Source of the DNA: a bacterium
GTDB lineage: Bacteria > Patescibacteriota > Patescibacteriia > Patescibacteriales > JAKAJF01
Assembly: GCA_021788015.1 (NCBI GenBank)
Contig: JAJYLD010000001.1
Coordinates: 209,581 to 273,580 of the forward strand
Direction: 5' to 3'
Length of the DNA: 64,000 nt
Shown: positions 856 through 56,602 of the stretch, in pieces
Position numbering within the stretch: the stretch's first letter is position 1
Layout: each line of letters starts with the position of its first letter
Translations under genes and position numbers: made by a program
Notes under the pieces: model-generated
Seen by the model: only the letters and a program-made list of their open reading frames with translations
Databases searched by the model: none
Told to the model about the DNA's origin: nothing

Positions 856-956
856 ACGAATCCTGTTAAGGGGTGACTCCAGCGGGATTGGATTTATTTT
901 TTAAGAATTAATCTATGCGGATCAAATTTTTTTGATTGCGATCTGCTTCTAACGGG
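856..956 (+). repeat. SCAIR element (start-codon-abutting inverted repeat), short form, copy 1
   Basis: The left arm ACGAAT-CCTGTTAAGGGG (856-873) is imperfectly complementary to the right arm TCTGCTTCTAACGGG (942-956). The right arm ends one base before ATG 957. The 3' part TTTTTGATTGCGATCTGCTTCTAACGGGATGAAA closely matches 44713-44745. Confidence 0.7.
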
Positions 957-14874: not shown

Positions 14875-14903
14875 TTGTCATGACACACGAAATATGATAA
14901 AAT
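14875..14903 (+). promoter_or_regulatory. Sigma-70-type promoter upstream of SCAIR copy A
   Basis: TTGTCA (14875-14880), a 17-nt spacer ending in TGa, then TAAAAT (14898-14903). Confidence 0.5.
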
Positions 14904-14925: not shown

Positions 14926-15247
14926 ATGGATCCCGTTGGAAGCCGCGATCGCGCTTCCGGGGGGAGAATAAGAATAACCAAGAGAATCTAAAGATATAAT
15001 TTAGGCGGCTATGCAATATATCTTTTTGATCGCGATCCCGACACCGCAAGTCCTATCGGATTCGGCCACGGGACAAGTTCTGCCGCACAAAATTTATTAT
15101 TAACCACGTCTCGCCCCGTAGTCACCGAATTTACGAGGCGTACCCCGTTAGAAATCTTTGGGATAAACCAAAGTAGAAATTTTTTCAAGGACATATCAGT
15201 CCGGATGGAACTTCTAACGGGGTGTACTACAGGGGCATTCTAACGGG
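14926..15247 (+). repeat. SCAIR element, long form, copy A (carries a nested small copy)
   Basis: The left arm is ATGGAT-CCCGTTGGAAGC (14926-14943) and the right arm CATTCTAACGGG ends at 15247, before ATG 15248. The core from TTGATCGCGATCCCGA onward aligns with 49522-49665 and 54048-54188. Confidence 0.8.
15143..15222 (+). repeat. Nested mini-SCAIR inserted in the core of copy A
   Basis: CCCCGTTAGAA (15143-15153) is complementary to TTCTAACGGGG (15212-15222). It interrupts GAGG-TGTA-CTAC, which is contiguous in copies B and C, and is flanked by CGTA on the left and TGTA on the right. Confidence 0.7.
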
Positions 15248-16501
15248 ATGGATAATGAAACAAAAAAATTTGGGAAACCGATCATAAGGACGATTATCAT
15301 AATCGTTCTTATGTTATTGAGTTTCGGCGCGGGACTTTATCTTCCGGGGAAAAGCGAAGTAATGCGCAATCTGTCCGCGAACGAGGCGGAATACGCCGGC
15401 AAAGTTTTAGGCCAATACGGCTTGCCGCCTGGCGGAACGATTTCCAACGATGTCAATTTCAACATGTTTTGGGATGTTTGGGACGCTCTAAAAAGCAAGT
15501 ACGTCGACCATAATAAATTAAGCGACAAGGAGATGTTTTATGGCGCTTTAAAGGGGTTGGCGGAGTCGACGGGAGATCCCTATACAGTTTTTATGGACCC
15601 CAAAGACGCCCAGAGTTTTTCAAATGATTTGGCCGGGACTTTTGAAGGCATCGGAGCCGAAATTGGAATCAAAAACAATATTTTAACCGTTGTTTCTCCT
15701 CTTGCCGGGTCGCCCGCGGACAAGGCGGGTCTTAAAGCGGGAGATAAGATTTACGCCATTAACGACGTTTCGACGGCCGGCATTTCCGTGGACGACGCGG
15801 TAGCGGAAATTCGCGGCCAGAAAGGCACGACGGTAAAATTAACCGTAATTCGCGAAGGCGTGGACAAACCCATGGATTTTGAAATTACCCGGAATACGAT
15901 TATCGTAAAGAGCGTTGATACGAAAATGGATAAGGGAATTTTTGTCATAACCATAAACAGTTTTAATGACGATACCCAGGATTTATTCGATAAAGCCGTG
16001 GAAGACGCCGTAAAAGCGAAACCGAAGGGAATCATTCTTGATTTAAGGAATAACCCGGGCGGGTACTTGGAAACTGCCATTGACGTGGCCAGCGCCTGGA
16101 TAAAAAATGGAGTCATCGTGACAGAAAAATTTTCCGACACGAAAAAGACGGATTTTCAAGCCAAGGGCGTGGCTCCTTTGGACGGTTATAAAACGGTCGT
16201 TCTTGTCAATCAGGGCAGCGCCTCCGCGTCGGAAATCGTCGCCGGAGCGTTAAAAGACGACGGCAAGGCAACTCTGGTCGGAGAAAAAACTTTCGGCAAA
16301 GGTTCTGTCCAGGATTTGGAAGATTTGCCGGACGGTTCGGAATTGAAAATAACCGTGGCGAAATGGCTGACTCCGAAAGGATACAACATCAATGAACAGG
16401 GGATAGAACCTGACGTCAAAGTGGACTTAACGCAAAAAGATTACGACGCGGGCAAAGATCCGCAAATGGACAAAGCGATTCAAATCATTAACCAAAAATA
16501 A
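15248..16501 (+). CDS. S41 family C-terminal processing peptidase
   Basis: N-terminal TM, a PDZ region (GIGAEIGIKNNILTVVSPLAGSPADKAGLKAGDKI), LDLRNNPGG, and the catalytic GSASASEI ... KTFGKGSVQ. Confidence 0.9.
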   Translation: MDNETKKFGKPIIRTIIIIVLMLLSFGAGLYLPGKSEVMRNLSANEAEYAGKVLGQYGLPPGGTISNDVNFNMFWDVWDALKSKYVDHNKLSDKEMFYGALKGLAESTGDPYTVFMDPKDAQSFSNDLAGTFEGIGAEIGIKNNILTVVSPLAGSPADKAGLKAGDKIYAINDVSTAGISVDDAVAEIRGQKGTTVKLTVIREGVDKPMDFEITRNTIIVKSVDTKMDKGIFVITINSFNDDTQDLFDKAVEDAVKAKPKGIILDLRNNPGGYLETAIDVASAWIKNGVIVTEKFSDTKKTDFQAKGVAPLDGYKTVVLVNQGSASASEIVAGALKDDGKATLVGEKTFGKGSVQDLEDLPDGSELKITVAKWLTPKGYNINEQGIEPDVKVDLTQKDYDAGKDPQMDKAIQIINQK

Positions 16502-20606: not shown

Positions 20607-20634
20607 TTGACACAATTTATTGTCATGGTATAAT
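20607..20634 (+). promoter_or_regulatory. Sigma-70-type promoter with extended -10 for the Fe-S operon
   Basis: TTGACA (20607-20612), a 16-nt spacer ending in TGg, then TATAAT (20629-20634). Confidence 0.65.
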
Positions 20635-20663
20635 AAAACCAACTAAATTAGTAGGAGATAATA

Positions 20664-20748
20664 ATACATCCCGTCAGAAGTCGTCGCTTTTGCGGGGTAA
20701 AAATTATTTTAATTTAGGCAGATTAATTAGAAGTCTGCTTCTAACGGG
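20664..20748 (+). repeat. SCAIR element, divergent short copy
   Basis: The left arm CATCCCGTCAGAAG (20667-20680) is complementary to the right arm CTTCTAACGGGATG, which ends at and includes ATG 20749. The right side carries the 19-mer GTCTGCTTCTAACGGGATG, identical to copies B and C. Confidence 0.7.
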
Positions 20749-21150
20749 ATGAAATTTTCGACAAAATCCACGTATGGCCTAAGGGCCATGATCAGGCTGG
20801 CGGAAAATTGGAAAAAAGAAAGTTTATCCTTATCGGTAATCGCAAAATCGGAAAACATTTCGCAAAAATACCTTGAAAGAATATTTGCTAGGTTAAAAAC
20901 AGCAAAATTGATCGAAAGTGAAAAGGGAGCGGGCGGCGGATATAAATTATCAAGATCTCCTTCTAAAATAAATATTTTGGAAATTATCGATGCATTGGAA
21001 GGAAAATTCGCGCCGTTTCATTGTTATACAAAAAGCGGAAAGGTTGTTTGTAGCACTTCCTGTAATTGCGGAGTTACTTTGGTTCTTAACCGCATTCAAA
21101 CCGGAATCGAAGATTCCTTAAGAAATATGAGCCTAAACCAGTTAAAATAA
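20749..21150 (+). CDS. Rrf2 family transcriptional regulator (IscR-like)
   Basis: MKFSTKSTYGLRAMIRLA winged-helix N-terminus, with C-terminal Cys residues (HCYTKSGKVVCSTSCNC). It lies at the head of the IscU/Nfu/desulfurase genes. Confidence 0.85.
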   Translation: MKFSTKSTYGLRAMIRLAENWKKESLSLSVIAKSENISQKYLERIFARLKTAKLIESEKGAGGGYKLSRSPSKINILEIIDALEGKFAPFHCYTKSGKVVCSTSCNCGVTLVLNRIQTGIEDSLRNMSLNQLK

Positions 21151-23423: not shown

Positions 23424-23437
23424 ATTCCGCTTTTTTT
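23410..23437. terminator. Bidirectional intrinsic terminator
   Basis: AAAAAGCGGAAT-AA-ATTCCGCTTTTT overlaps the desulfurase stop, between convergent genes. Confidence 0.75.
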
Positions 23438-23714
23438 AATGGAACGGATTGTTCAAACCGTCGATGTTACGAATGTATGTTTTTTGGTTTATTTTTTTTA
23501 TTATACCGTTGAATTTATTTATATCGAAAGTTTCGGTGGCGACTTCATTTTTTAACACCAAAACAATTTCAGATTGCGTAACCGATTCGTAAAAATTATT
23601 ATAAAGAAAGATGACGTCGAAATACAAAACGAAAATTATAAGCAAGACCAAAAGAAAATAAGTCGCCCCAGAAATTTTTCGGAATGAAATTTTTATTTTC
23701 CCCGCTATACGCAT
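23436..23714 (-). CDS. Small membrane-anchored protein at the distal end of the pilus operon
   Basis: 92 aa with one N-terminal TM (ATYFLLVLLIIFVLYFDVIFL). Its ATG directly follows a SCAIR right arm. Confidence 0.55.
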   Translation of the reverse strand: MRIAGKIKISFRKISGATYFLLVLLIIFVLYFDVIFLYNNFYESVTQSEIVLVLKNEVATETFDINKFNGIIKKINQKTYIRNIDGLNNPFH

Positions 23715-23807
23715 CCGTTAGAAGCGGATTTCAATCATTTTTGATTATACAAATCCGCATAAATAATGATTAAATTTTATCCCGGTCGAAGCGTGCTTCT
23801 AACGGGG
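23715..23807 (-). repeat. SCAIR element, short divergent copy on the minus strand
   Basis: Read on the minus strand: CCCCGTTAGAAGC (23807-23795) ... CCGCTTCTAACGG (23727-23715), immediately followed by ATG (23714-23712). The internal hairpin is GCGGATTT/AAATCCGC. Confidence 0.7.
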
Positions 23808-23813
23808 TAAATG

Positions 23814-43059: not shown

Positions 43060-44598
43060 ATGGCGATAATCTTTATTTTTTTGCTTATTTTGGTCGCTTC
43101 CGTCTTCACTCCCCAGTATATTTTATTTTTATTGGTTCTAAATCTTTTCGCCGGACTTTTTCTGTCTCTCTCCCAAATAATAATCGCTTTGCTGCCGCAC
43201 GCAAAGCCTCTTCATAAACAATTGAATTCGCAACCGTTCGTTTCGATTTTCGTTCCCGCCTATAACGAACCTCCAGCGATTTTGATGCAAACGCTGGAAA
43301 CCCTTTCAAAATTGAGATATGACAATTTTGAAGTTTTGGTCATAGACAATAACACCGAAGATCCGGATATTTGGAAACCGGTGGAAGCGTTTACAAAAAC
43401 GCTCGGAGAAAAGTTTCGTTTCTTTCATGTCGATCGCCTTTCCGGTTTTAAAGCCGGCGCGCTCAATTACCTTATAAAATACATGGAAAAGAAATCGGAA
43501 TATGTGGCCGTAATCGACGCCGATTATCTCGTCCATTCCTATTTTTTGACAACCGCTTTGTCATATTTCACGAATAAAGACATAGCTCTCGTGCAATTTC
43601 CGCAGCAATACCGCAATCGCATCAAAAAGAATCAGGCCATAGCCGACGAATACAGACATTTTTTCGGTATTTACATGAATATGGCCAATCATCTCGACTG
43701 CGTTCCCTCGACCGGTACCGTAAGTATTTATAAGTCGAACGTTTTGCGCCAAATCGGCGGTTTTCGGGGCGAGGCGCTTACGGAAGACGCCGATATCGGA
43801 CTTAGAATTTACGGAGCGGGTTATCGCGGGATATTTGTCGACCGACCGATCGGTTACGGTTTGATGCCTTACGACCTTGAAGCTTACCGGAAGCAAAAAT
43901 GGAGATGGGCGTTCGGAAACGCGCAATCGATAAAAACTCTTTTTTCTCTGTTTGGGAAAATTCCGTTCAGGTCCTGGCTAGGATTTCTTATCCATCTTAC
44001 GGCATGGGATCATTTGAATTTCTTACCATTCGCCGTTTTGGCCGCTTATTCCGTCGTTTTGCTGCCGAACATTCCGGTAACGCCCACGCATAGGCTTCTG
44101 CTTGAAATCGCTTCTTTGTCGATTTTTGTCACCTTGATATCCAAATTGATTCTTATTCGAGTGGCTTTGCGGAACCAGCCGAATTCTTTATCGCGTTCTT
44201 TGCGGGCTTTCGGAGTCCATATCGGCATGACTTTTTTGTATTCCGAAGCATGGCTTACCTATATTCTGCGCATGAAATTCACTTTTGAACGAACAAACAA
44301 ATTTATTTTTGCGAAAATGCCGAGCCTTTTGAAAAATTCGTACAAAGAGCTTGTCCTGGGATTATGGTTTTTGATCGGGATGGTTGAGGCTATCTTCTGG
44401 GGTACAAGAATAATAACGGTCGTCGCTTATTTTGTCTCGTCGATAATTTTATTTTCCGTTTACTACGTGTATTGGAAAATTTATCCGACAAAATCATATT
44501 CGAAAAAAATATTTGAAAACACGGAAAAGAAATATCTTCCTTATATCAAGTCAACGACTCACAATGTAAATTACGAATTAACCGAAGCAAGATTATGA
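43060..44598 (+). CDS. Membrane-embedded processive GT2 synthase (cellulose/chitin/hyaluronan-synthase-like)
   Basis: N-terminal TMs, a GT-A core (VIDNNTED, DADY, TEDADIG), then the QxxRW motif (RKQKWRWAFGN) followed by about six TM helices. Confidence 0.8.
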   Translation: MAIIFIFLLILVASVFTPQYILFLLVLNLFAGLFLSLSQIIIALLPHAKPLHKQLNSQPFVSIFVPAYNEPPAILMQTLETLSKLRYDNFEVLVIDNNTEDPDIWKPVEAFTKTLGEKFRFFHVDRLSGFKAGALNYLIKYMEKKSEYVAVIDADYLVHSYFLTTALSYFTNKDIALVQFPQQYRNRIKKNQAIADEYRHFFGIYMNMANHLDCVPSTGTVSIYKSNVLRQIGGFRGEALTEDADIGLRIYGAGYRGIFVDRPIGYGLMPYDLEAYRKQKWRWAFGNAQSIKTLFSLFGKIPFRSWLGFLIHLTAWDHLNFLPFAVLAAYSVVLLPNIPVTPTHRLLLEIASLSIFVTLISKLILIRVALRNQPNSLSRSLRAFGVHIGMTFLYSEAWLTYILRMKFTFERTNKFIFAKMPSLLKNSYKELVLGLWFLIGMVEAIFWGTRIITVVAYFVSSIILFSVYYVYWKIYPTKSYSKKIFENTEKKYLPYIKSTTHNVNYELTEARL

Positions 44599-44739
44599 AT
44601 TCCATTAGAAGCTCAGCCGGAAACGGACGAGCGCGATTGCTTCGTTGGAAAGACAATAGAAATAAAAAATAAAGGATTAAAGATTAACTCGAGCGGATAA
44701 GCAGTTCAAACTTTTTGATCGCGATTCGCTTCCAATGGG
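44595..44739 (+). repeat. SCAIR element, short form, with compensated arm variants
   Basis: The left arm is ATGAAT-TCCATTAGAAGC (44595-44612) and the right arm GCTTCCAATGGG (44728-44739) ends before ATG 44740. The internal TTTTTGATCGCGAT matches the start of the long-form core. Confidence 0.7.
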
Positions 44740-45777
44740 ATGAAAATAGCTCTCCTTGCTCCGCTTTGGAAAAAAATTCCTCCCGAGAAATACGGCGGAT
44801 CGGAATTGGTTGTCGCCAATTTGGCAAAAGGATTAACCGAACTCGGGCATGATGTGACAACCTTGGCCTGCGGCGGATCAGAAGTATCCGGCAAACTTAT
44901 TCCTGTTATTGAAAAGCCGATGTATGATCTCGTTGGCGGTTTCGATTGGAGCGGAATCAAGCAATATGAATTTTTGTCTTTTTTTGAATTGGGCAAGCGA
45001 ATAAAAGATTTCGATATCGTTCATAACCACATGGGTTTTCATCCAATCGCTCTCGCTCCGTTTCTGGATATTCCGTTTGTCACGACGCTCCATAGCAGTT
45101 TGCCGCCGGATTTTCCGTTTTTGGCCGAAGCTTTTCGCGAATATCCGTTTGTCTCAATCAGCGAGGCGCAAAGAAGATTGGCGCCAGACTTGAATTATGT
45201 CGGAACGGTATATCACGGCATCGACGTGAAATCCTTTCGGCCGCGACCTGATGGCGACGGGAACGGTTTTGTCTTTATGGGCACCATGTCTCGCAATAAA
45301 GGCATCGATATCGCGGTCAAAGCCGCTCGCGCGCTCGGAGTAAAATTGACTATCGCGGGAGAAATAAGAGAAAGCGACGGGTCCTTTCTTGAAAAGGAAG
45401 TTTTTCCCTATGTTGACGGGAAAAACATACAACTTGTCGGAGAAGTCGATCATGAAGAAAAAAATCGTTTGTTTGCCGAGGCCGACGGCGTTCTTTTTCC
45501 ATCACGCTGGAACGAAGCCTTCGGATTGGTTATGGCGGAGGCGCTCGCTTGCGGCACGCCCGTTGTTGCGCTAAACAACGGAGCGGTTCCGGAAGTTATT
45601 AGAAACGGAAAAACGGGTTTTATCGTCGAAAACGAGCGGGAATTCACGGAAGCGATGGAAAAAGTCGGCAAAATTTCAAGAGAAGTTTGCCGCTCCGAAG
45701 CGGAACGGCGCTTCGATATTTCCGCGATGGCGGAAAATTATGATTACGTATATAAAAAATTAATCCAAACAAAATGA
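44740..45777 (+). CDS. Glycosyltransferase family 4
   Basis: MKIALLAPLWKKIPPEKYGGSELVV, and C-terminal PSRWNEAFGLVMAEALACGTPVVA. Confidence 0.85.
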   Translation: MKIALLAPLWKKIPPEKYGGSELVVANLAKGLTELGHDVTTLACGGSEVSGKLIPVIEKPMYDLVGGFDWSGIKQYEFLSFFELGKRIKDFDIVHNHMGFHPIALAPFLDIPFVTTLHSSLPPDFPFLAEAFREYPFVSISEAQRRLAPDLNYVGTVYHGIDVKSFRPRPDGDGNGFVFMGTMSRNKGIDIAVKAARALGVKLTIAGEIRESDGSFLEKEVFPYVDGKNIQLVGEVDHEEKNRLFAEADGVLFPSRWNEAFGLVMAEALACGTPVVALNNGAVPEVIRNGKTGFIVENEREFTEAMEKVGKISREVCRSEAERRFDISAMAENYDYVYKKLIQTK

Positions 45778-49402: not shown

Positions 49403-49432
49403 CCTCAAATTATGTTAAAATAAATTCATGAA
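49403..49432 (+). promoter_or_regulatory. Sigma-70-type promoter with extended -10 just upstream of SCAIR copy B
   Basis: TTGCAA (49403-49408), an 18-nt spacer ending in TGt, then TAAAAT (49427-49432). The predicted start lies within a few nt of the element's left edge at 49439. Confidence 0.55.
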
Positions 49433-49438
49433 TCCCGT

Positions 49439-49665
49439 TTTAGAAGCCGCGGTAGCTTTCACGGGAAGAATAGGTCTGATGTGAAATAAATTAAAATTTT
49501 TAACTTAGCAGATATAAATCAAATTTGATCGCGATCCCGATACAACAAATCCTGTCGGATTTGGCTACGGGACAAGTTCTATCGCACAAAACTTATTTTT
49601 AACCACGTCTCGCCCCGTAGTCACCGAGTTCACGAGGTGTACTACGGGGGTCTGCTTCTAACGGG
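49439..49665 (+). repeat. SCAIR element, long form, copy B
   Basis: The left arm is ATGAAT-CCCGTTTTAGAAGC and the right arm GTCTGCTTCTAACGGG ends at 49665, before ATG 49666. The core at 49522-49665 is nearly identical to 54048-54188. Confidence 0.8.
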
Positions 49666-51129
49666 ATGAATATCACCATTGATTTTAGCGCCATAAATAA
49701 TTTCTTAAACCAGCCGCTCGGCCCGTTGATGTGGCAAATTTTTTATACGATAGGATGGATTCCCGCCGTTTTTATCATGCTTTGGGGATTCAAGGAAATG
49801 TGGGTTGAGTATATACATAATCGTTGGGCGGGAGCGCAGAAAAAGATTTTATTGGCCATAGACATACCGCGCGGCAATACGCAATCTCCGCGAGCGGTCG
49901 AGAATATGTTCGCTTACCTCGCCGGCGCTCATGGCACCATCAATTTGGTTGAAAATTATTGGGAAGGGAAAATCCAGCTTTCTTTCAGCTTTGAAATCGT
50001 CAGCATAGACGGATATACTCAGTTTATAATCCGCACGCCCGAAGTTTTTCGCCATCTTGTCGAAACCGCGATTTATTCGCAATATCCGGACGCGGAAATC
50101 ACGGAAGTGAACGACTATATCGAAGGCATGCCGAAGAAATTCCCGGACGAAGAATACGACATGTGGGGGACGGAATTCATTCAGGCGAAAAACGAGGCCT
50201 ACCCCATTAAATTATATACGGAATTCGAGCACCAGATGGGCCCGGTGGAAACTTTTTATCGCGATCCCATGGCGGCATTGATGGATTTGTGCAGCAGTTT
50301 GCGCAAGGGGGAACAGCTTTGGTTCCAGATTATCGTCAAGCCCATCGACATGAACGAGTGGACAAAAATAGGGGACAAGGAGGCGGCGAAAATATTAAAA
50401 GAGAAGCCGGCGGAAGCCAAAGGAATTCTGCCTGGCATCGAAAAGGGTTTTTTTGGATTCTTTTCCGTATTGAGCGATATGATGGGATCCATGTTCGGCT
50501 ATGCTCCGGCGGAAAAGCAAAAGGAAGAAAAAAAGGATGAATCTCTCAAGATGATGCAGTTGAAACCGAAGGAGAGGAAACAGGTCGAGGCCGTTCACGC
50601 CAAAATTGGGAAAATCGGCTTTCATTGCAAATTTAGGTTTGTCTATATCGCGAAAAAGGACGTTATGAACAAACCGAAAGTCGTAAACGGTTTCGTGGGC
50701 TTCATGAAACAATTCGCGGCCATGGATTTGAACAATTTAAAACCGGATATGAAAAAAACCGCCACATCCGTTCATTATTTTTTTAAAAACTATCGCTTAA
50801 ACGGAAGGAAAAAAAGAGTAATAAGAAACTACATTGCCAGGGACGGAGGCAAAGGAAGGAAAATGGGTATTTTCACGACAGACGAATTGGCGACAGTTTG
50901 GCACTTCCCGGTCGAAAGCGTGGTCAAAGCCCCGATGATCCAGAAAGCGCCGGGAAGAAAGGCGGAGCCGCCATCAAGCCTTCCCATCGATATCGAACCG
51001 GCAAGCGAAGCCGTCTTCGAGCCGCGATTCCGAGAAGAAGTTCTCGGTCAAAAACCGAAGCAGATGCAGGAAGAAAAAATAAAAGAAGAAGAAAAAGGTT
51101 CGCCGCCGGACAATTTACCGTTTATTTAG
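49666..51129 (+). CDS. Hypothetical membrane-anchored protein, partner of the downstream TraD/VirD4-like ATPase
   Basis: 487 aa. One N-terminal TM (LMWQIFYTIGWIPAVFIMLWGF), a large soluble body and a Lys/Glu-rich C-terminus. No family recognised. Confidence 0.6.
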   Translation: MNITIDFSAINNFLNQPLGPLMWQIFYTIGWIPAVFIMLWGFKEMWVEYIHNRWAGAQKKILLAIDIPRGNTQSPRAVENMFAYLAGAHGTINLVENYWEGKIQLSFSFEIVSIDGYTQFIIRTPEVFRHLVETAIYSQYPDAEITEVNDYIEGMPKKFPDEEYDMWGTEFIQAKNEAYPIKLYTEFEHQMGPVETFYRDPMAALMDLCSSLRKGEQLWFQIIVKPIDMNEWTKIGDKEAAKILKEKPAEAKGILPGIEKGFFGFFSVLSDMMGSMFGYAPAEKQKEEKKDESLKMMQLKPKERKQVEAVHAKIGKIGFHCKFRFVYIAKKDVMNKPKVVNGFVGFMKQFAAMDLNNLKPDMKKTATSVHYFFKNYRLNGRKKRVIRNYIARDGGKGRKMGIFTTDELATVWHFPVESVVKAPMIQKAPGRKAEPPSSLPIDIEPASEAVFEPRFREEVLGQKPKQMQEEKIKEEEKGSPPDNLPFI

Positions 51130-53108: not shown

Positions 53109-53213
53109 AAAATGTCTAAATTATAATTTCCAATTTCTAAATTTAGGAATTGGGAATTTTATTAGACCTTATAATTTAGAAATTAGAAATTTTTGTCATT
53201 ACTCTCGCCTATT

Positions 53214-54017
53214 ATGAAAATCAAAGCCAGTTTACATATTCATACCAAAGAAGATAAAAAAGAGGGTTTTTTTATAAGCTACTCGATTTATGATTTAATT
53301 GATCATGCGAAATTGTTAGGCTTCAGGGTCTTGGCCTTGACGACCCATAAAACTTTTGTTTATAAGGAAGAGTACGGAAAGTACGCGGAAGAGAAAGGCA
53401 TTTTACTAATCCCCGGAATCGAACTTGATATGCATGCGCCGTTTTTAAAACGATGCCATATTCTCGTTTTAAATTGCGAAAAAGACATCGAGAAAGTAAA
53501 AACATTTTCTGATCTGAAAAAATACAAAAAAAAGAATCCGAAAATTTTTATCATCGCCCCTCATCCCAATTTCGACTATTTCAATTCGATGGGCATGCGC
53601 AATTTGAAAAAATATATCGGACTTTTTGACGCGATCGAACATTCTTGGTTTTTTTCAACATTCTTGAATTTTAACAGACGCGCGGGAAGAATCGCAAAAA
53701 AATTCAAAAAGCCCTTTATCGCCACGGCCGATTGTCATACCCTTGATTTTTTCAATTCCGATTACATAACCCTTGACTTAAAAAAAATGGACGCCGATTC
53801 CGTATTCAAAAAATTAAGAGAAAGAAAGTTTGAAAATGTGACCAAACGAAAAAAATTCTTGAAAATAATTTTTTATTATCTTAAAGAATTTATCTTTAAA
53901 TATTACGGATTGCTTTTGATCGTAAAAATTAAGAACATTTTAGAAAAAGATACGAATCCCGTTAGAAGCCGCGATCGCTTTAATGGGGAAAAAATAAAAC
54001 ATGAAAAAATTTCATAA
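53214..54017 (+). CDS. PHP family metal-dependent phosphoesterase
   Basis: The ATG at 53214 gives MKIKASLHIHTKED (HxH motif), with later TTH, APHP and ADCH metal-ligand motifs. The last 22 codons run through the left arm of SCAIR copy C. Confidence 0.7.
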   Translation: MKIKASLHIHTKEDKKEGFFISYSIYDLIDHAKLLGFRVLALTTHKTFVYKEEYGKYAEEKGILLIPGIELDMHAPFLKRCHILVLNCEKDIEKVKTFSDLKKYKKKNPKIFIIAPHPNFDYFNSMGMRNLKKYIGLFDAIEHSWFFSTFLNFNRRAGRIAKKFKKPFIATADCHTLDFFNSDYITLDLKKMDADSVFKKLRERKFENVTKRKKFLKIIFYYLKEFIFKYYGLLLIVKIKNILEKDTNPVRSRDRFNGEKIKHEKIS

Positions 54018-54188
54018 TAATATGCAGATTATAGAATCAAAATTTTTTTTGATCGCGATCCCGATACAACAAATCCTGTCGGATTTGGCTACGGGACAAG
54101 TTCTATCGCACAAAACTTATTTTAACTACGTCTCGCCCCGTAGTCACCGAGTTTACGAGGTGTACTACCGGGGTCTGCTTCTAACGGG
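53952..54188 (+). repeat. SCAIR element, long form, copy C
   Basis: The left arm ACGAAT-CCCGTTAGAAGC lies inside the 3' end of the PHP gene, and the right arm GTCTGCTTCTAACGGG ends at 54188, before ATG 54189. Confidence 0.8.
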
Positions 54189-55745
54189 ATGGATTATCTA
54201 AAAATTGGAAAAGCCACGGATCTCGATGGCGGGGATAAAAAATTATACCGGTTTTTGGAAATTCTTCCCGGCTCGCTTTCCTGGGCGACTTTAATCATTT
54301 TAACTTTGGCATCTTATCTCTGGCCGGTATGGGCGGCTTATTTTATTATCGCCTTTGACGTTTATTGGCTCTTATTGGTCGCTTTTCTTGGAATTCATTT
54401 GATTGTCAGTTATCGCAAATTGACGCAAAACAAAAAAGTGAATTGGGAAAAGGAATGTGAAAAAATCGATCTTTCCGATTCCGGTTTCAGTTTCGATTCC
54501 TGGCGAGACGTTTATCATCTCATAATTTTCCCGACCTATAACGAGAGCCTGGAAATTATCCGCCCCAGCATAGAAAGCGTTTTAAACGACGGCTATCCTT
54601 TGGATAAAATTATTCTGGTTTTGGCGATTGAAGAACGCGGCGGTCCCGAAGCTTTGGAGCGCGCGAAAACGATCGAGCGAGAATACGGAAATAAATTCGG
54701 ACATTTTTTAATTACCACCCATCCCGATGGAATTGTCGGAGAACTTAAAGCAAAGGGCGCGAACCAAGCATGGGCGGCCCGAGAGGTCAAAGAAAAAATT
54801 ATCGACAAAGAGGGGATCGATTACGATCGTATACTTGTGAGCGTTTTTGATATCGATACGATTGTGGATAAAGGTTATTTTTTCCGTCTGACCCAAAAAT
54901 TTTTAACTTCAAAAAATCCTTATCGCGCCAGTTATCAGCCGGTTCCTGTTTATTTCAACAATCTTTGGGAAGCGCCTTTTTTCGCGCGCGTGGCCGCATC
55001 CTCGAACACTTTTTGGCAAATGATGCAACAGATCAGGGAAGAAAAATTGGCGACGTATTCATCTCACTCTATGACATGGAAAGCTTTGGTTGAAATAGGA
55101 TTTTGGTCGACAAGTATGGTTAGCGAGGACTCAAGAATTTTTTGGCATTGTTTTTTGTATTATAACGGCGATTATCGAGTGGAACCGCTTTATTTTCCGG
55201 TATCGATGGACGTTACCATGGATGAAAGCTTTAAAAAAACCATGATCAATTTGTACAAACAGCAAAGGAGATGGGGCTGGGGCGTGGAAAATTTGCCCTA
55301 TCTTATGTTTAATACGATAAAAAGATGGAAAATTTTGCCAAAAAAAGGAAAAATGATCAATCGCATTTCGGTTCAACTTTATGGATTTCACTCCTGGGCG
55401 ACAAACGCCCTTATTATCGGTATTATCGGTTGGTTTCCCGTTCTTCTTGGGGGGGGGCGGTTTAATTCCACCGTGCTCTCCGGAAATTTACCTTATATAA
55501 GTCGAACGTTAATGACCTTGGCTATGGGCGGCATGGTTTTATCGGCCGTCGTTTCAACATTGCTTTTGCCCGAAAGACCGAAAAGATACGGATTTATAAA
55601 AAATATTATCATGTTTTTTCAATGGTTGATTCTGCCATTGAGCATAATTATTTTCGGATCCATCCCCGGGTTGGAGGCGCAGACTCGCTTGATGTTGGGC
55701 AAATATATGGGTTTCTTTGTTACGCCGAAAGCGAGAAAAAGTTAG
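54189..55745 (+). CDS. Membrane-embedded GT2-like synthase with a QxxRW motif
   Basis: N-terminal TMs, a GT-A-like core (IIFPTYNESLE, VFDIDT, SEDSRIF), YKQQRRWGWG, and C-terminal TM helices. Confidence 0.75.
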   Translation: MDYLKIGKATDLDGGDKKLYRFLEILPGSLSWATLIILTLASYLWPVWAAYFIIAFDVYWLLLVAFLGIHLIVSYRKLTQNKKVNWEKECEKIDLSDSGFSFDSWRDVYHLIIFPTYNESLEIIRPSIESVLNDGYPLDKIILVLAIEERGGPEALERAKTIEREYGNKFGHFLITTHPDGIVGELKAKGANQAWAAREVKEKIIDKEGIDYDRILVSVFDIDTIVDKGYFFRLTQKFLTSKNPYRASYQPVPVYFNNLWEAPFFARVAASSNTFWQMMQQIREEKLATYSSHSMTWKALVEIGFWSTSMVSEDSRIFWHCFLYYNGDYRVEPLYFPVSMDVTMDESFKKTMINLYKQQRRWGWGVENLPYLMFNTIKRWKILPKKGKMINRISVQLYGFHSWATNALIIGIIGWFPVLLGGGRFNSTVLSGNLPYISRTLMTLAMGGMVLSAVVSTLLLPERPKRYGFIKNIIMFFQWLILPLSIIIFGSIPGLEAQTRLMLGKYMGFFVTPKARKS

Positions 55746-56350: not shown

Positions 56351-56407
56351 AGCAACCATTTTCGTTATTGCCGAAAGTTACATGGGTGCCCCGCCTGCCA
56401 TCGCCAA

Positions 56408-56478
56408 AGCCCTCTGTCAGAATCGAACTGACGTATGTGGTTTACGATACCACTGTTCTGCCACTGAACTAAGAGGGC
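56408..56478 (-). tRNA. tRNA-Thr (anticodon CGU)
   Basis: Minus-strand cloverleaf: acceptor GCCCTCT/AGAGGGC, D arm GTTC-AGTGGCA-GAAC, anticodon arm GTGGT-ATCGTAA-ACCAC, T arm GTCAG-TTCGATT-CTGAC. CCA is not encoded. Confidence 0.9.
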
Positions 56479-56531
56479 TCAAGCCATGGCGGGCAAGGCG
56501 GGCGGGAATCGGTTTCTGCATCGCCGGAATG

Positions 56532-56602
56532 AGCAGGATACGAGAATCGAACTCGCGCCCTCTGCTTGGGAAGCAGACATACTGCCACTGTACTAATCCT
56601 GC
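56532..56602 (-). tRNA. tRNA-Gly (anticodon CCC)
   Basis: Minus-strand cloverleaf: acceptor GCAGGAT/ATCCTGC, D arm GTAC-AGTGGCA-GTAT, anticodon arm TCTGC-TTCCCAA-GCAGA, T arm GCGAG-TTCGATT-CTCGT, discriminator U. CCA is not encoded. Confidence 0.9.

Follow-up and report, generated by a model that had tools for sequence, protein, structure and literature searches.

In the 64-kb stretch of DNA analysed here (the window), the short repeat preceding the element upstream of an S41 peptidase gene stems probably, at about three chances in four, from a small mobile element that targets start codons and duplicates its target site, this repeat being the left copy. The element, an inverted repeat TCCCGTTAGA…TCTAACGGG, is found in 8 copies within the window. 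In these copies the right end lies exactly at the ATG of a gene, and that start is repeated to the left of the left arm. We propose that insertion would duplicate the ATG and the next two bases, so that the right copy remains the start codon of the host gene, and that the left copy would stay at the old initiation site, be it the start of a leaderless transcript, an overlap of stop and start, or a Shine-Dalgarno site. The copies of the window, which are non-coding and about 80-320 nt long, would be MITE-like derivatives of full elements. The specificity for ATG is probably mechanistic.

The duplicated start in other genomes

The right-arm 18-mer TCTGCTTCTAACGGGATG was used as a query and scanned over species-representative genomes. 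Among the matches listed, more than 112 loci carried it, nearly all of them in Patescibacteria and distributed over many classes, and in about 105 of these the left arm ATCCCGTTAGAAGCCGCGATCGC, which is absent from the query, was present about 100 nt upstream. The counts that follow refer to the 105 elements with both arms among the matches listed, the left side of which was unselected by the query.

A perfect repeat of 4-6 nt of the downstream start was found in 76 of the 105 elements (72%). For the 5-mer the repeat was perfect in 59% of them, against 21% after permuting the right flanks between loci and 0% when a 5-mer 30 nt further upstream served as control. At base +1 after the ATG the left flank agreed with the gene in 66/68 cases (34.8 in permuted pairs) and at base +2 in 62/68 (44.2 in permuted pairs), with a permutation P < 0.0002 at both bases. 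Base +3, the sixth base, matched in 18/68 cases where 18.7 were expected, which is chance level. This base, a T, is the first base of the element and does not belong to the duplication. The initial annotation had described the repeat as a hexamer, ATGGAT at 14926-14931 and again at 15248-15253, which is correct as sequence, and had offered as one reading a 6-bp target-site duplication that regenerates the start codon. The duplication and the regenerated start stand, the length has to be shortened by one base.

The flanks seen across more than 100 copies include ATGAA, ATGGA, ATGAG, ATGCG, ATGCA, ATGTC and ATGGG, and even the rare starts among these (ATGCG, ATGTC, ATGGG and ATGCA) were matched between flank and gene. 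The flanking bases of all copies had been put forward earlier as the means of telling a duplication from a conserved motif; since the flanks differ from copy to copy and follow the opening bases of whichever gene lies downstream, they indicate a target-site duplication and not a fixed motif. The data thus support a 5-bp duplication of the form ATGNN, of 4 or 6 bp in a minority of copies.

The right ATG opens an ORF of at least 60 codons, or one that runs off the locus, in 99 of 106 cases. The host genes are diverse housekeeping genes, unrelated to each other and forming no regulon, and they include essential, highly expressed ones such as rpmJ, rplC, rplU, rplI, topA, gap and tpiA. A phage origin was discarded, since the 18-mer gave 0 matches in 2.9 million viral contigs and a 15-mer from the structured insert of about 120 nt gave chance matches only. 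A literature search with sequence strings, peptides and concepts, in which subscription journals were poorly covered, retrieved no description of the element.

Copies and folding in the window

The element proper extends from T-CCCGTTAGA... to ...TCTAACGGG, these being its terminal inverted repeats. The copies of the window are listed in Table 1. Three of them add to those of the initial annotation: one at 20664->20749, one on the minus strand at 23807->23715 and one nested in copy A. The motif GAGG(T/C)GTACTAC, into which the nested element is inserted in copy A, is uninterrupted in copies B and C and in another surveyed locus (L016).

Table 1. Elements of the window and the features associated with them
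Feature	Position	Strand	Remarks
Copy '856'	856..956	+	left 5-mer ACGAA (856-860), left arm degenerate
Copy '856', right arm	ends 956		TCTGCTTCTAACGGG; host GT4 glycosyltransferase gene begins ATGAA at 957
Promoter-like site TTGTCA-17-TAAAAT with TG extension	14875..14903	+	upstream of copy A left ATG
Copy A, left 5-bp duplication	14926..14930	+	ATGGA; sequence and statistics on 105 elements
Copy A, composite element	14931..15247	+	sequence, fold
Copy A, left arm	14931-14953	+	TCCCGTTGGAAGCCGCGATCGCG
Copy A, segment after the AT-rich interior that follows the left arm	15028-15035	+	GATCGCGA
Copy A, structured RNA module	15036-15143 plus 15227-15236	+	
Nested 78-nt element, same superfamily	15143..15221	+	C-CCCGTTAGAAATC ... 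CTTCTAACGGG; inside copy A
Nested element, flanks	15138-15142 and 15222-15226	+	GCGTA and GTGTA; non-ATG, GTG-type target
Copy A, right arm	15235-15247	+	GCATTCTAACGGG
Copy A, right duplication copy	15248-15252	+	ATGGA, first 5 nt of the S41 peptidase gene
Copy A, host gene	15248..16501	+	S41 (Ctp-type) peptidase with PDZ domain
Copy 20664, upstream signals	20607-20634 and 20653-20657	+	perfect promoter and Shine-Dalgarno AGGAG, both upstream of left end
Copy 20664	20664..20748	+	host Rrf2 regulator gene, ATG at 20749
Minus-strand copy	23715..23812	-	ATTTA-C-CCCGTTAGAAGC ... GCTTCTAACGG, then ATG 23714-23712 of gene 23436-23714
Copy '44595'	44595..44739	+	left ATGAA (44595-44599), arms diverged; host GT4 gene begins ATGAA at 44740
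Copy B, -10 box TAAAAT	ends 49421	+	promoter scan
Copy B	49428..49665	+	left ATGAA 49428-49432; element 49433-49665 with structured RNA module; host gene begins ATGAA at 49666
Copy C	53952..54188	+	left 5-mer ACGAA (53952-53956); element 53957-54188 with structured RNA module; host GT2-like gene begins ATGGA at 54189

At 14926-14930 the S41 peptidase gene would have had its start codon before the insertion. For copy B the initial annotation had placed the left ATGAAT at 49439; its right twin at 49666 is correct and the left one lies 11 nt away, at 49428; the upstream ORF MNPVLEAAVAFTGRIGLM is correctly translated and occupies 49428-49484. The remaining claims on these flanks agree with the sequence: ATGAAT at 44595 faces ATGAAA at 44740, with the left ATG overlapping the TGA of the upstream GT2 gene (43060-44598), ACGAAT at 856 faces ATGAAA at 957, ACGAAT at 53952 faces ATGGAT at 54189, and both the three upstream ORF translations and the PHP gene tail are correct. 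The PHP gene (53193-54017) reads through the left arm of copy C. The duplication has decayed in the minus-strand copy and in copy 20664, where the left 5-mer is ATACA and the gene starts with ATGAA. The structured RNA module of copy C is 97% identical to that of copy B over 145 nt.

The arms measure 23-26 nt and hardly vary even between very distant classes; 97.6% of the stem cells are paired in a set of 91 canonical copies. The minimum-free-energy fold of copy A closes with a long-range helix (z = -3.2), the folds of copies B and C have z-scores of -3.9 and -4.75, and a closing helix is also predicted for copy 20664 (z = -4.2) and for the minus-strand copy (z = -3.9). Compensatory change in the stem was limited to 3 pairs (7 cells) and wobble pairs were not favoured; the arms are too invariant for compensation, or an asymmetry between wobbles and mismatches, to reveal an RNA-specific signal. 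A search of Rfam 15 over the whole window at the gathering threshold, and at E <= 5-10 on copies A, B and C and on the ORF-carrying element of locus L019, assigned no family to the elements and yielded two tRNAs and two irrelevant weak matches. A self-splicing intron or known ribozyme was rejected, since no catalytic RNA core appeared in A, B, C or L019. A riboswitch or other cis-regulatory leader RNA was rejected because covariation is minimal and the downstream genes are unrelated.

Gene-carrying relatives and evidence on mobility

Relatives with the same termini and ATGNN flanks carry one ORF of 94 aa encoding a GIY-YIG protein (UPF0213/YhbQ-like). This ORF has no start codon of its own: it begins at the duplicated host ATG (MNPVRD…) and ends in …SLTG, with its TGA overlapping the host ATG (…CTAACGGGATGA). 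An example is the ORF at 2980-3264 of L019, which runs from the left ATG to the TGA that overlaps the host ATG. The family comprises 2296 clusters of homologous proteins, and among the best 120 of these about 90 start with MNPVR and 90 end with FLSLTG. Flanks are ATGAG|…|ATGAG in L114 and ATGAA|…|ATGAA in L240, and those of L118 match at 4/5 positions. The hosts are again unrelated (NrnA-like, GT4, an exo/endo-phosphatase family protein and others).

All the GIY-YIG homologues listed carry a PF01541 annotation, the closest solved relatives are UPF0213 proteins and Slx1 (E = 7e-10 to the UPF0213 protein of PDB 1zg2), and the NCBIfam model for group I intron endonucleases gave a weak match below its cut-off (E = 0.002). 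We take this protein to be the putative mobilising nuclease of the family. The overlap of TGA and host ATG is, by its sequence arrangement, that of classical translational coupling. As the ORF is read from the host ATG and its TGA overlaps the host ATG again, it would borrow initiation from the host gene and return the ribosomes by termination-reinitiation. Intact copies with the gene are few, a point against the mobile-element reading: 0.9 Mb contained 2 of them beside about 150 hairpin copies, and the window has none. No identical GIY-YIG protein was seen at several loci; one (P0026) recurs in many samples, always at the same locus.

Several observations point to mobility. The closest orthologues of the S41 peptidase (58-65% identity; loci L123, L125, L126 and L139) have no element upstream. 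Interiors at different genes of one MAG are up to 92-97% identical, and about 60% identical between MAGs. Tandem copies occur in L002, L013, L075 and L100. The surveyed loci hold further copies, unselected by the query, that have the termini alone in common and differ in their interiors, which are unrelated; these have their stem lengthened by complementary sequence in both arms and lie at an ATG with ATGNN repeats.

Other findings count against a mobile element. The canonical copies unselected by the query are all in sense to the gene (9/9), an orientation for which a symmetric inverted-repeat transposon would need selection or a directional mechanism. Arms that stay almost invariant across very distant classes are not usual in MITEs and may point to a function for the host, and the length of the duplication ranges between 4 and 6 bp. 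Characterised GIY-YIG nucleases are not known to make a 5-bp staggered cut, and the overhangs produced by I-TevI and related enzymes are 2-nt 3' ones. No transposition event, close-strain empty site or excision product was seen, the sole contig from a near-identical strain (L243) breaking inside the element. Among the loci examined, neither a DDE, HUH or recombinase partner nor a large autonomous element with the same arms more than 420 nt apart was found.

Tentatively, and with rather more doubt than confidence, we suggest that these elements form an unrecognised class of mobile elements spread across Patescibacteria, mobilised by a minimal 94-aa GIY-YIG nuclease and recognising start codons. 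An element without its own start would take over the host initiation site, leaderless or coupled, through ATGNN and hand it back at AUGA. The hairpin RNA would be invisible to initiation (skipped, bypassed or cut to a 5'-terminal AUG) before essential genes.

Initiation behind the element and comparison with known systems

The left ATG is retained in 81% of the left flanks. Mismatches of the left copy number 5, 4, 10, 6 and 9 at its successive positions, the ATG being kept no better than NN. The upstream ORFs that it opens have 1-43 codons and scattered stops, their frame relative to the main ATG is distributed 30/26/21, and about 23% reach the right arm, which is about chance for an AT-rich loop. 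A Shine-Dalgarno sequence 3-13 nt from the left ATG is absent in 95/105 elements and one before the right ATG in 105/105. About 20% of the elements lie 6-8 nt downstream of a -10 box, which suggests leaderless genes that need a 5'-terminal AUG. Given the promoter-like site upstream of its left ATG, the entire copy A would be transcribed as a 5' leader. The initial annotation had predicted a promoter close to the left ATG of copy B, and its -10 box indeed ends at 49421 with the ATG at 49428, which would place the onset of transcription at this ATG or close to it. In copy 20664, 92 nt separate the Shine-Dalgarno sequence from the AUG as long as the hairpin is unfolded. Scans gave no outward promoter within the right arm from which transcription could begin afresh at the right ATG; in this arm TTGATC and TCTAAC have an unfit spacing by inspection.

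For the genes behind hairpin-only copies, the fold may bring the old initiation site beside the new ATG; alternatively, ribosomes may reinitiate after a short relic upstream ORF.

A different account, which we consider improbable, is that the insertion is neutral in the RNA, with the hairpin, and possibly the ORF form too, removed from the mRNA or skipped. An endonuclease might excise it and the ends be ligated; a cut immediately 5' of the right AUG might leave a leaderless mRNA; or the initiating ribosome might cross the compact hairpin between the two identical AUGNN, from left to right, as in the bypassing of T4 gene 60, the direct repeat then serving as matching take-off and landing sites. 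The proximity of -10 boxes, the lack of Shine-Dalgarno sequences at either ATG, the strict sense orientation, the distance of the Shine-Dalgarno sequence in copy 20664 if the hairpin is unfolded and the tolerance of the element by genes such as rpmJ and rplC are all in its favour, as is the very stable helix predicted to join the ends in L012 (z = -6.3). However, Rfam recognised no ribozyme or intron family, covariation is minimal with wobble pairs unfavoured, and a take-off site that is needed would hardly decay as neutrally as the left copy seems to. Moreover the in-frame ORF with its AUGA overlap indicates that retention in the mRNA is intended for the ORF form.

Still less probable, in our view, is a cis-regulatory device of the host, as in the second reading of the initial annotation, in which the left ATG would be a selected decoy or leader start and translation of the upstream ORF through the left arm would melt the helix and free the main AUG, coupling or controlling translation. 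The closing helix predicted in most copies does take in the A and U of the main AUG, conservation of the arms is extreme, the orientation is always sense and most left flanks retain their ATG. But the flank copies each gene's own ATGNN, elements stand before unrelated housekeeping genes that form no regulon, orthologues lack the element, and copy 20664 has lost its left ATG. A regulatory upstream ORF or leader peptide was rejected because start, length and stop are unconserved and the left ATG is no better kept than NN. The decay of this ATG, the variable upstream ORFs, the lack of Shine-Dalgarno sequences and the minimal covariation leave a selected decoy unsupported for the hairpin copies; the part of the proposal that holds concerns the ORF-bearing relatives, whose left ATG, to judge from their sequence, is a start in use and coupled to the host ATG.

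Chance resemblance of ATGAAT-like strings in AT-rich DNA, also raised initially, is practically excluded: ATGAA is the commonest gene start and already gives the permuted pairs their perfect 5-mers, but the observed excess over permutation and control and the matching of rare starts go far beyond this.

If the start-codon insertion is accepted, about 1 gene in 8 in the window has a selfish insertion exactly at its start codon, and many housekeeping genes of Patescibacteria carry such insertions. This raises the question of how translation starts with a hairpin of about 100 nt between the old signal (leaderless or stop-start) and the AUG. Saccharibacteria have been brought into culture, and genetic tools are available for them (PMC10633639). 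A pair of nuclease and element with start-codon specificity would be unusual for mobile elements and could aid targeted insertion at gene starts. It would also give a role to the small "GIY-YIG nuclease family proteins" of CPR genomes, a very large family so far unexplained. For annotation, the left ATG gives rise to spurious small ORFs and to start codons called wrongly, and upstream genes may read into the arm, as the PHP gene does; in assembly, contigs break at the repeat, as in L243.

Among known systems, the elements resemble MITEs and other non-autonomous transposable elements, which likewise have terminal inverted repeats, a short and variable duplication of the target site and numerous non-coding copies in each genome. 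In both, the interiors vary, copies may be nested or in tandem, and those of one genome are much alike; for the present elements, orthologous sites probably also differ in whether they contain a copy. Unlike MITEs, the present elements target the start codon with a duplication that always begins with ATG, they are strictly in sense, their arms are nearly invariant across the superphylum, and their sole protein-coding relative encodes a 94-aa GIY-YIG nuclease and no DDE, HUH or recombinase transposase. REP/BIME (RAYT) and IS200/IS605 palindromic elements, which make no target duplication and insert beside a fixed short sequence that the element determines, are ruled out by the variable NN duplicated on both sides. 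The core sites of integron attC have the consensus 5'-RYYYAAC ... GTTRRRY-3'; here the order is reversed, the 5' arm having ...GTTAGAA... and the 3' arm ...TTCTAAC..., and attC was rejected.

Homing genes of the GIY-YIG type (T4 seg, I-TevI) are likewise small selfish genes wedged between host genes and often overlapping them. Homing endonuclease genes are copied by repair into one cognate site without inverted repeats or target duplication, whereas the present element has many unrelated targets, inverted repeats and a 5-bp duplication, its GIY-YIG ORF lacks a DNA-binding domain and it has no intron ribozyme. The GIY-YIG domain is shared, but with many hosts, inverted repeats and ATGNN flanks in place of a single cognate site we rejected a homing endonuclease gene.

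Rickettsia palindromic elements (RPEs) are similar as short palindromic selfish repeats whose insertion preserves the frame or function of the host gene. RPEs enter coding sequence in frame and become part of the translated host protein, whereas the present elements lie exactly at the start codon and outside the host protein. In phage T4 genes 38, 25 and 60 a stable hairpin lies between the site of initiation or take-off and the codon put to use; bypassing in gene 60 takes place between identical codons on both sides. By analogy, these split ribosome-binding sites and bypassing may be a model for the genes behind hairpin copies, although the T4 cases are single evolved loci and no mobile family. 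Finally, in the introner elements of eukaryotic algae and fungi a target-site duplication also regenerates the interrupted signal and the insertion is tolerated; there the splice sites are regenerated and the spliceosome removes the insert, whereas the present element regenerates a bacterial start codon.

Copies of the element in the window

The hexamer sites of the window are copies of one repeated element. The left arm (A/G)TCCCGTTAGAAGC[CGCGATCGC] and the right arm [GATCGCGATCT]GCTTCTAACGGG are common to all these sites, and the host ATG lies immediately 3' of the latter. The flanking hexamers reported in the initial annotation were all found again, as were the translations of the three upstream ORF (uORF) peptides and of the tail of the PHP gene; the left coordinate of copy B, placed there at 49439, is in fact 49428. 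Three copies absent from that annotation were also identified, namely copy 20664, a copy on the minus strand and a small copy nested within copy A. The host genes in the window are unrelated to each other and include two GT4 glycosyltransferases, an S41 peptidase, an Rrf2 regulator, a GT2-like protein and a membrane protein which gave no Pfam match above threshold.

RNA folding indicated that a long-range helix closes most window copies (z -3.2 to -4.75). The diverged copies score lower (z = -1.8 for copy 856 and -2.4 for copy 44595), and in copy 856 the centroid closes with this helix but the minimum-free-energy fold does not. No Rfam family was found for any window copy.

Some hairpin copies carry, inserted in an AUCU bulge, a conserved RNA module of about 120 nt with two hairpins and a possible pseudoknot CUCG/CGAG, jointly changed to CUCA/UGAG in stretch L047 from another genome. 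The module, too, lacks a counterpart in Rfam, and the genes behind it are unrelated to one another, so that it does not resemble a metabolite riboswitch; a ribozyme or other mobile RNA module is possible. The PHP-domain gene runs through the left 5-mer and the left arm of copy C, so that the element provides the codons for the gene's final 21 residues (TNPVRSRDRFNGEKIKHEKIS), and the original C-terminus or stop codon seems to have been replaced by the insertion.

Positions of element copies and associated features (window coordinates; L numbers denote stretches from other genomes or contigs)
Feature	Position	Strand	Flanks or context
Copy A	14926-14931 (left hexamer); 15248 (host start)		ATGGAT on both sides
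Copy B	49428 (left); 49666 (right)		ATGAAT on both sides
Copy C	53952		ACGAAT left, ATGGAT right
Copy 856	856		ACGAAT left, ATGAAA right
Copy 44595	44595		ATGAAT left, ATGAAA right; left ATG overlaps TGA of upstream gene
Copy 20664	20664->20749	+	precedes Rrf2 regulator gene
Additional copy	23812->23715	minus	precedes gene 23436-23714
Additional small copy	15143-15221		nested within copy A
RNA module, copy A	15036-15143 + 15227-15236		
RNA module, copy B	49535-49652		
RNA module, copy C	54059-54175		
RNA module, L016	1-112		
RNA module, L047 and L064			
GCGATCGC palindrome/GATC	14944-14952, 15028-15037, 49527-49536, 53970-53977, 54051-54060		
PHP-domain gene	53193-54017		
tRNA genes	56407-56602	minus	two ordinary genes, Thr-CGT and Gly-CCC
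GIY-YIG element, L019	2980-3264		94-aa protein
GIY-YIG context, L114			upstream GT2 gene stops at TGA inside left ATGAG; host GT4 gene starts ATGAG
GIY-YIG context, L240			ATGAA on both flanks
GIY-YIG context, L118			-10 box 6 nt upstream of left ATGAG; host starts ATGAA
rplI elements	L152:2305-2377, L166:2326-2437, L172:2424-2532		three different interiors
76-nt subfamily	L005:4316-4391, L029:4307-4382		AAGGAG(G) inside right arm

Duplication of the start codon across Patescibacteria

The window itself corresponds to the metagenome contig ERZ27233565 k141_1432758. The 18-mer TCTGCTTCTAACGGGATG was scanned against one genome per species and gave at least 112 matching stretches, nearly all in MAGs of Patescibacteria and in many classes (Saccharibacteria, Paceibacteria, Levy-, Lipton-, Sung-, Nomura-, Terry-, Kerfeld-, Wildermuth-, Jorgensen-, Giovannoni-, Vogel-, Zambryski-, Yanofsky- and Daviesbacteria), with zero matches in 2.9 million viral contigs. 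Some 105 of the matches listed are preceded, at a distance of about 100 nt, by a near-perfect left arm ATCCCGTTAGAAGCCGCGATCGC, which was absent from the query, and the consensus reads atgaaTCCCGTTAGAAGCCGCGATCGC, a variable AT-rich stretch of about 55 nt, and tgATCGCGATCTGCTTCTAACGGGATGaaa. Three matches in other phyla (L003, L020, L046) have no left arm and look like chance. Several genuine elements (L007, L027, L030, L039, L052, L061, L081) are borne by MAGs labelled 'uncultured Gammaproteobacteria' (CAZSXQ01, CAZZBC01, CAZZCX01), which are probably mislabelled Patescibacteria bins; if the labels are correct, the host range of the element is wider.

The hexamer left of the element had been read either as a 6-bp target-site duplication at a start codon or as a conserved decoy or leader start, and statistics on the flanks had been proposed to tell them apart. 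These were collected for the 105 elements with both arms among the matches listed. In 81% an ATG lies 5-7 nt before CCCG, and in 68 elements exactly 6 nt. In these 68, the left flank and the host start share the first base after ATG in 66 cases, where permutation of right flanks among loci gives 34.8, and the second base in 62 (44.2 by permutation). The third, the T before CCCG, agrees in 18, against 18.7 by permutation, and is thus the first base of the element, outside the duplication. Rare starts are also duplicated (atgcG/TCCCG with ATGCGC, atgtc/CTCCCG with ATGTCC, atggag/TCCCG with ATGGAG). When the best offset is allowed, 62 elements have a perfect repeat of 5 bp, 8 of 4 bp and 6 of 6 bp, together 72% of the 105; the share with a perfect 5-mer, 59%, falls to 21% under permutation and to 0% when a 5-mer 30 nt upstream is taken instead. 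Most left flanks without ATG are one substitution off (ATA, TTG, CTG, ACG or GTG). The flank therefore copies each target's own ATGNN and holds no constant motif, the hallmark of a target-site duplication, and we put at about 0.75-0.8 the probability that the hexamer is the duplication left by a start-codon-inserting element. The first reading thus stands in substance, with a usual length of 5 bp in place of 6. Some ambiguity remains with a 4-bp duplication of TGNN in which the A of the right ATG comes from the element, because the termini T…A are mutually complementary.

A selected decoy or leader start finds no support for the hairpin copies, either in the decay of the flanks or in the uORFs. 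Mismatches between the two 5-mers are distributed evenly along their length (5, 4, 10, 6, 9 by position), so the left ATG is preserved no better than the NN, and in copy 20664 it has decayed to ATA. The uORFs run for 1-43 codons; in 59 of 77 the stop falls at scattered positions between 24 and 119 nt before the main ATG, and the frames relative to that ATG divide 30/26/21. About a quarter enter the right arm and are stopped there by TAA (at -7) or TGA (overlapping ATGA), a fraction that we estimate to be near chance for an 18-codon AT-rich loop. Their shared start MNPVRSRDR is no more than a consequence of the conserved arm.

A coding relative and the translation of host genes

Copies at the same loci that were not chosen by the query have only the termini TCCCGTTAGA / TCTAACGGG in common, with unrelated interiors and with arms that extend as complementary sequence (AAAG/CTTT, AAGT/ACTT, AAAATTAA/TTAATTTT, GAC/GTC). 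Each adjoins the ATG of a long ORF and has the ATGNN repeat. One of them, in L019, encodes a GIY-YIG protein whose ORF starts at the left, duplicated ATG (ATGAA followed by TCCCGTTAGAGAC, giving MNPVRD) and ends in …KRFLSLTG*, where TCTCTAACGGG is followed by an ATGA in which the stop TGA and the host ATG overlap. From this layout, with which the contexts in L114, L240 and L118 agree, we conclude that the element lacks its own start codon and is translated from that of the host, the ATGA overlap being the classical arrangement for termination-reinitiation. Here the decoy reading, though unsupported for the hairpin copies, echoes the workings of the coding relatives. The protein is of the UPF0213/YhbQ type (PDB 1zg2, E = 7e-10), with Slx1 as a weak relative and a match to the group I intron endonuclease family below threshold. 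Its homologues form 2296 clusters in a large protein collection (E <= 1e-3); among the best 120 almost all have 93-95 aa, about 90 begin MNPVR and a few MSPVR, and 90 end FLSLTG. Where the source gives a name, it is GIY-YIG nuclease of Patescibacteria, Parcubacteria or Minisyncoccia. The hairpin-copy uORF MNPVRSRDR… is best explained as a relic of this N-terminus. Intact GIY-YIG copies are scarce: the 0.9 Mb examined contains two, besides one remnant and about 150 hairpin copies, and the 64-kb window has no intact copy.

The right ATG opens an ORF of at least 60 codons or running off the locus in 99 of 106 cases, and one short ORF is rpmJ. Judged from N-terminal sequences, the hosts include rpmJ, rplC, rplU, topA, murG, gap, tpiA, sodA and nrdR, among others. 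Some host genes recur in distant lineages: rplI bears elements in three lineages, and topA in both a Saccharibacterium and a Terrybacterium (L017, L073); these may be either recurrent insertions at favoured genes or very old ones. Among the matches listed, a Shine-Dalgarno sequence at 3-13 nt from the left ATG is missing in 95 of the 105 elements, and before the right ATG in all of them. In 15 of 85 elements the left ATG follows the end of a -10 box by 6-8 nt (background about 1 per distance bin), a spacing that fits leaderless transcripts and to which copy B conforms: the promoter predicted close to its left ATG was found, the box ending at 49421. Of 98 elements, 52 have a same-strand ORF whose end lies no more than 60 nt from the left ATG; 13 of these show an ATGA stop-start overlap, which copy 44595 fits, and five elements are preceded by another in tandem. 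In the 76-nt subfamily the AAGGAG(G) lies 14 nt before the host ATG and may supply the element's own ribosome-binding site.

A stable hairpin of about 100 nt separates the host AUG from the old initiation site (e.g. -41 kcal/mol, z = -6.3). The folded hairpin could place this site beside the AUG, ribosomes could reinitiate after the relic uORF, or the RNA could be processed or bypassed. Copy 20664 (window 20653-20749) has a perfect promoter and an AGGAG Shine-Dalgarno sequence now 92 nt from the real start; only the folded hairpin could bring AGGAG and ATG together, and this copy seems to require such juxtaposition.

Probable mobility and comparison with known systems

The S41 peptidase has relatives at 77 loci, the closest of which (58-65% identity; L123, L125, L126, L139) have no element before the gene. 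Within one MAG, copies at different genes have interiors up to 92-97% identical, against about 60% between MAGs, which is alignment background; copies B and C share 97% identity over the right 145 nt. Tandem copies exist (junction …AACGGGATGAATCCCG…). The nested 78-nt copy of the same superfamily (flanks GCGTA/GTGTA) lies within the non-coding structured module of copy A, at a GTG-type target that is no start codon, and this single case suggests recognition of an NTG-type target at the level of DNA, not of translation. No empty site was found in a near-identical strain; the sole such contig (L243:1-110, a Logan contig of the same strain) stops inside the nested element of copy A, so such repeats break short-read assemblies.

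In the canonical hairpin both arms are almost invariant and 97.6% of stem cells pair, with compensatory change in only 7 cells and wobble pairs not favoured over mismatches, so these data fit an RNA helix and protein-recognised inverted repeats alike. All nine canonical copies not chosen by the query lie in sense orientation, which calls for either insertion in a fixed direction or selection acting on the RNA. Characterised GIY-YIG nucleases leave 2-nt 3' overhangs, and a 5-bp duplication would need another cutting geometry or a second factor. Our confidence in a particular enzyme, and in any one route of host-gene translation, is much lower than in the duplication. The extended arms also hold the palindrome GCGATCGC, which matches the cyanobacterial HIP1 octamer exactly, and several GATC sites, a hint that a host factor related to methylation or nicking recognises them.

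A full-text literature search, in which most subscription journals were outside coverage, returned no description of the element, and an earlier one is thus possible. It does not show the defining features of a homing endonuclease gene (one cognate site, no inverted repeats or duplication), nor those of an intron or ribozyme, a riboswitch, a leader peptide, a REP/IS200-type element or an integron attC site. In our classification it is a mobile element marked by inverted repeats and a target duplication. It would count as a new class of element if the GIY-YIG protein is the mobilising enzyme and the start-codon specificity is mechanistic. It is built like a MITE family that has a coding parent, with an arm conservation across the superphylum that is stronger than usual for MITEs, and it is unlike every family compared in its start-codon target, in an ORF that borrows the host ATG, in having a minimal GIY-YIG nuclease as sole protein and in its strictly sense orientation.
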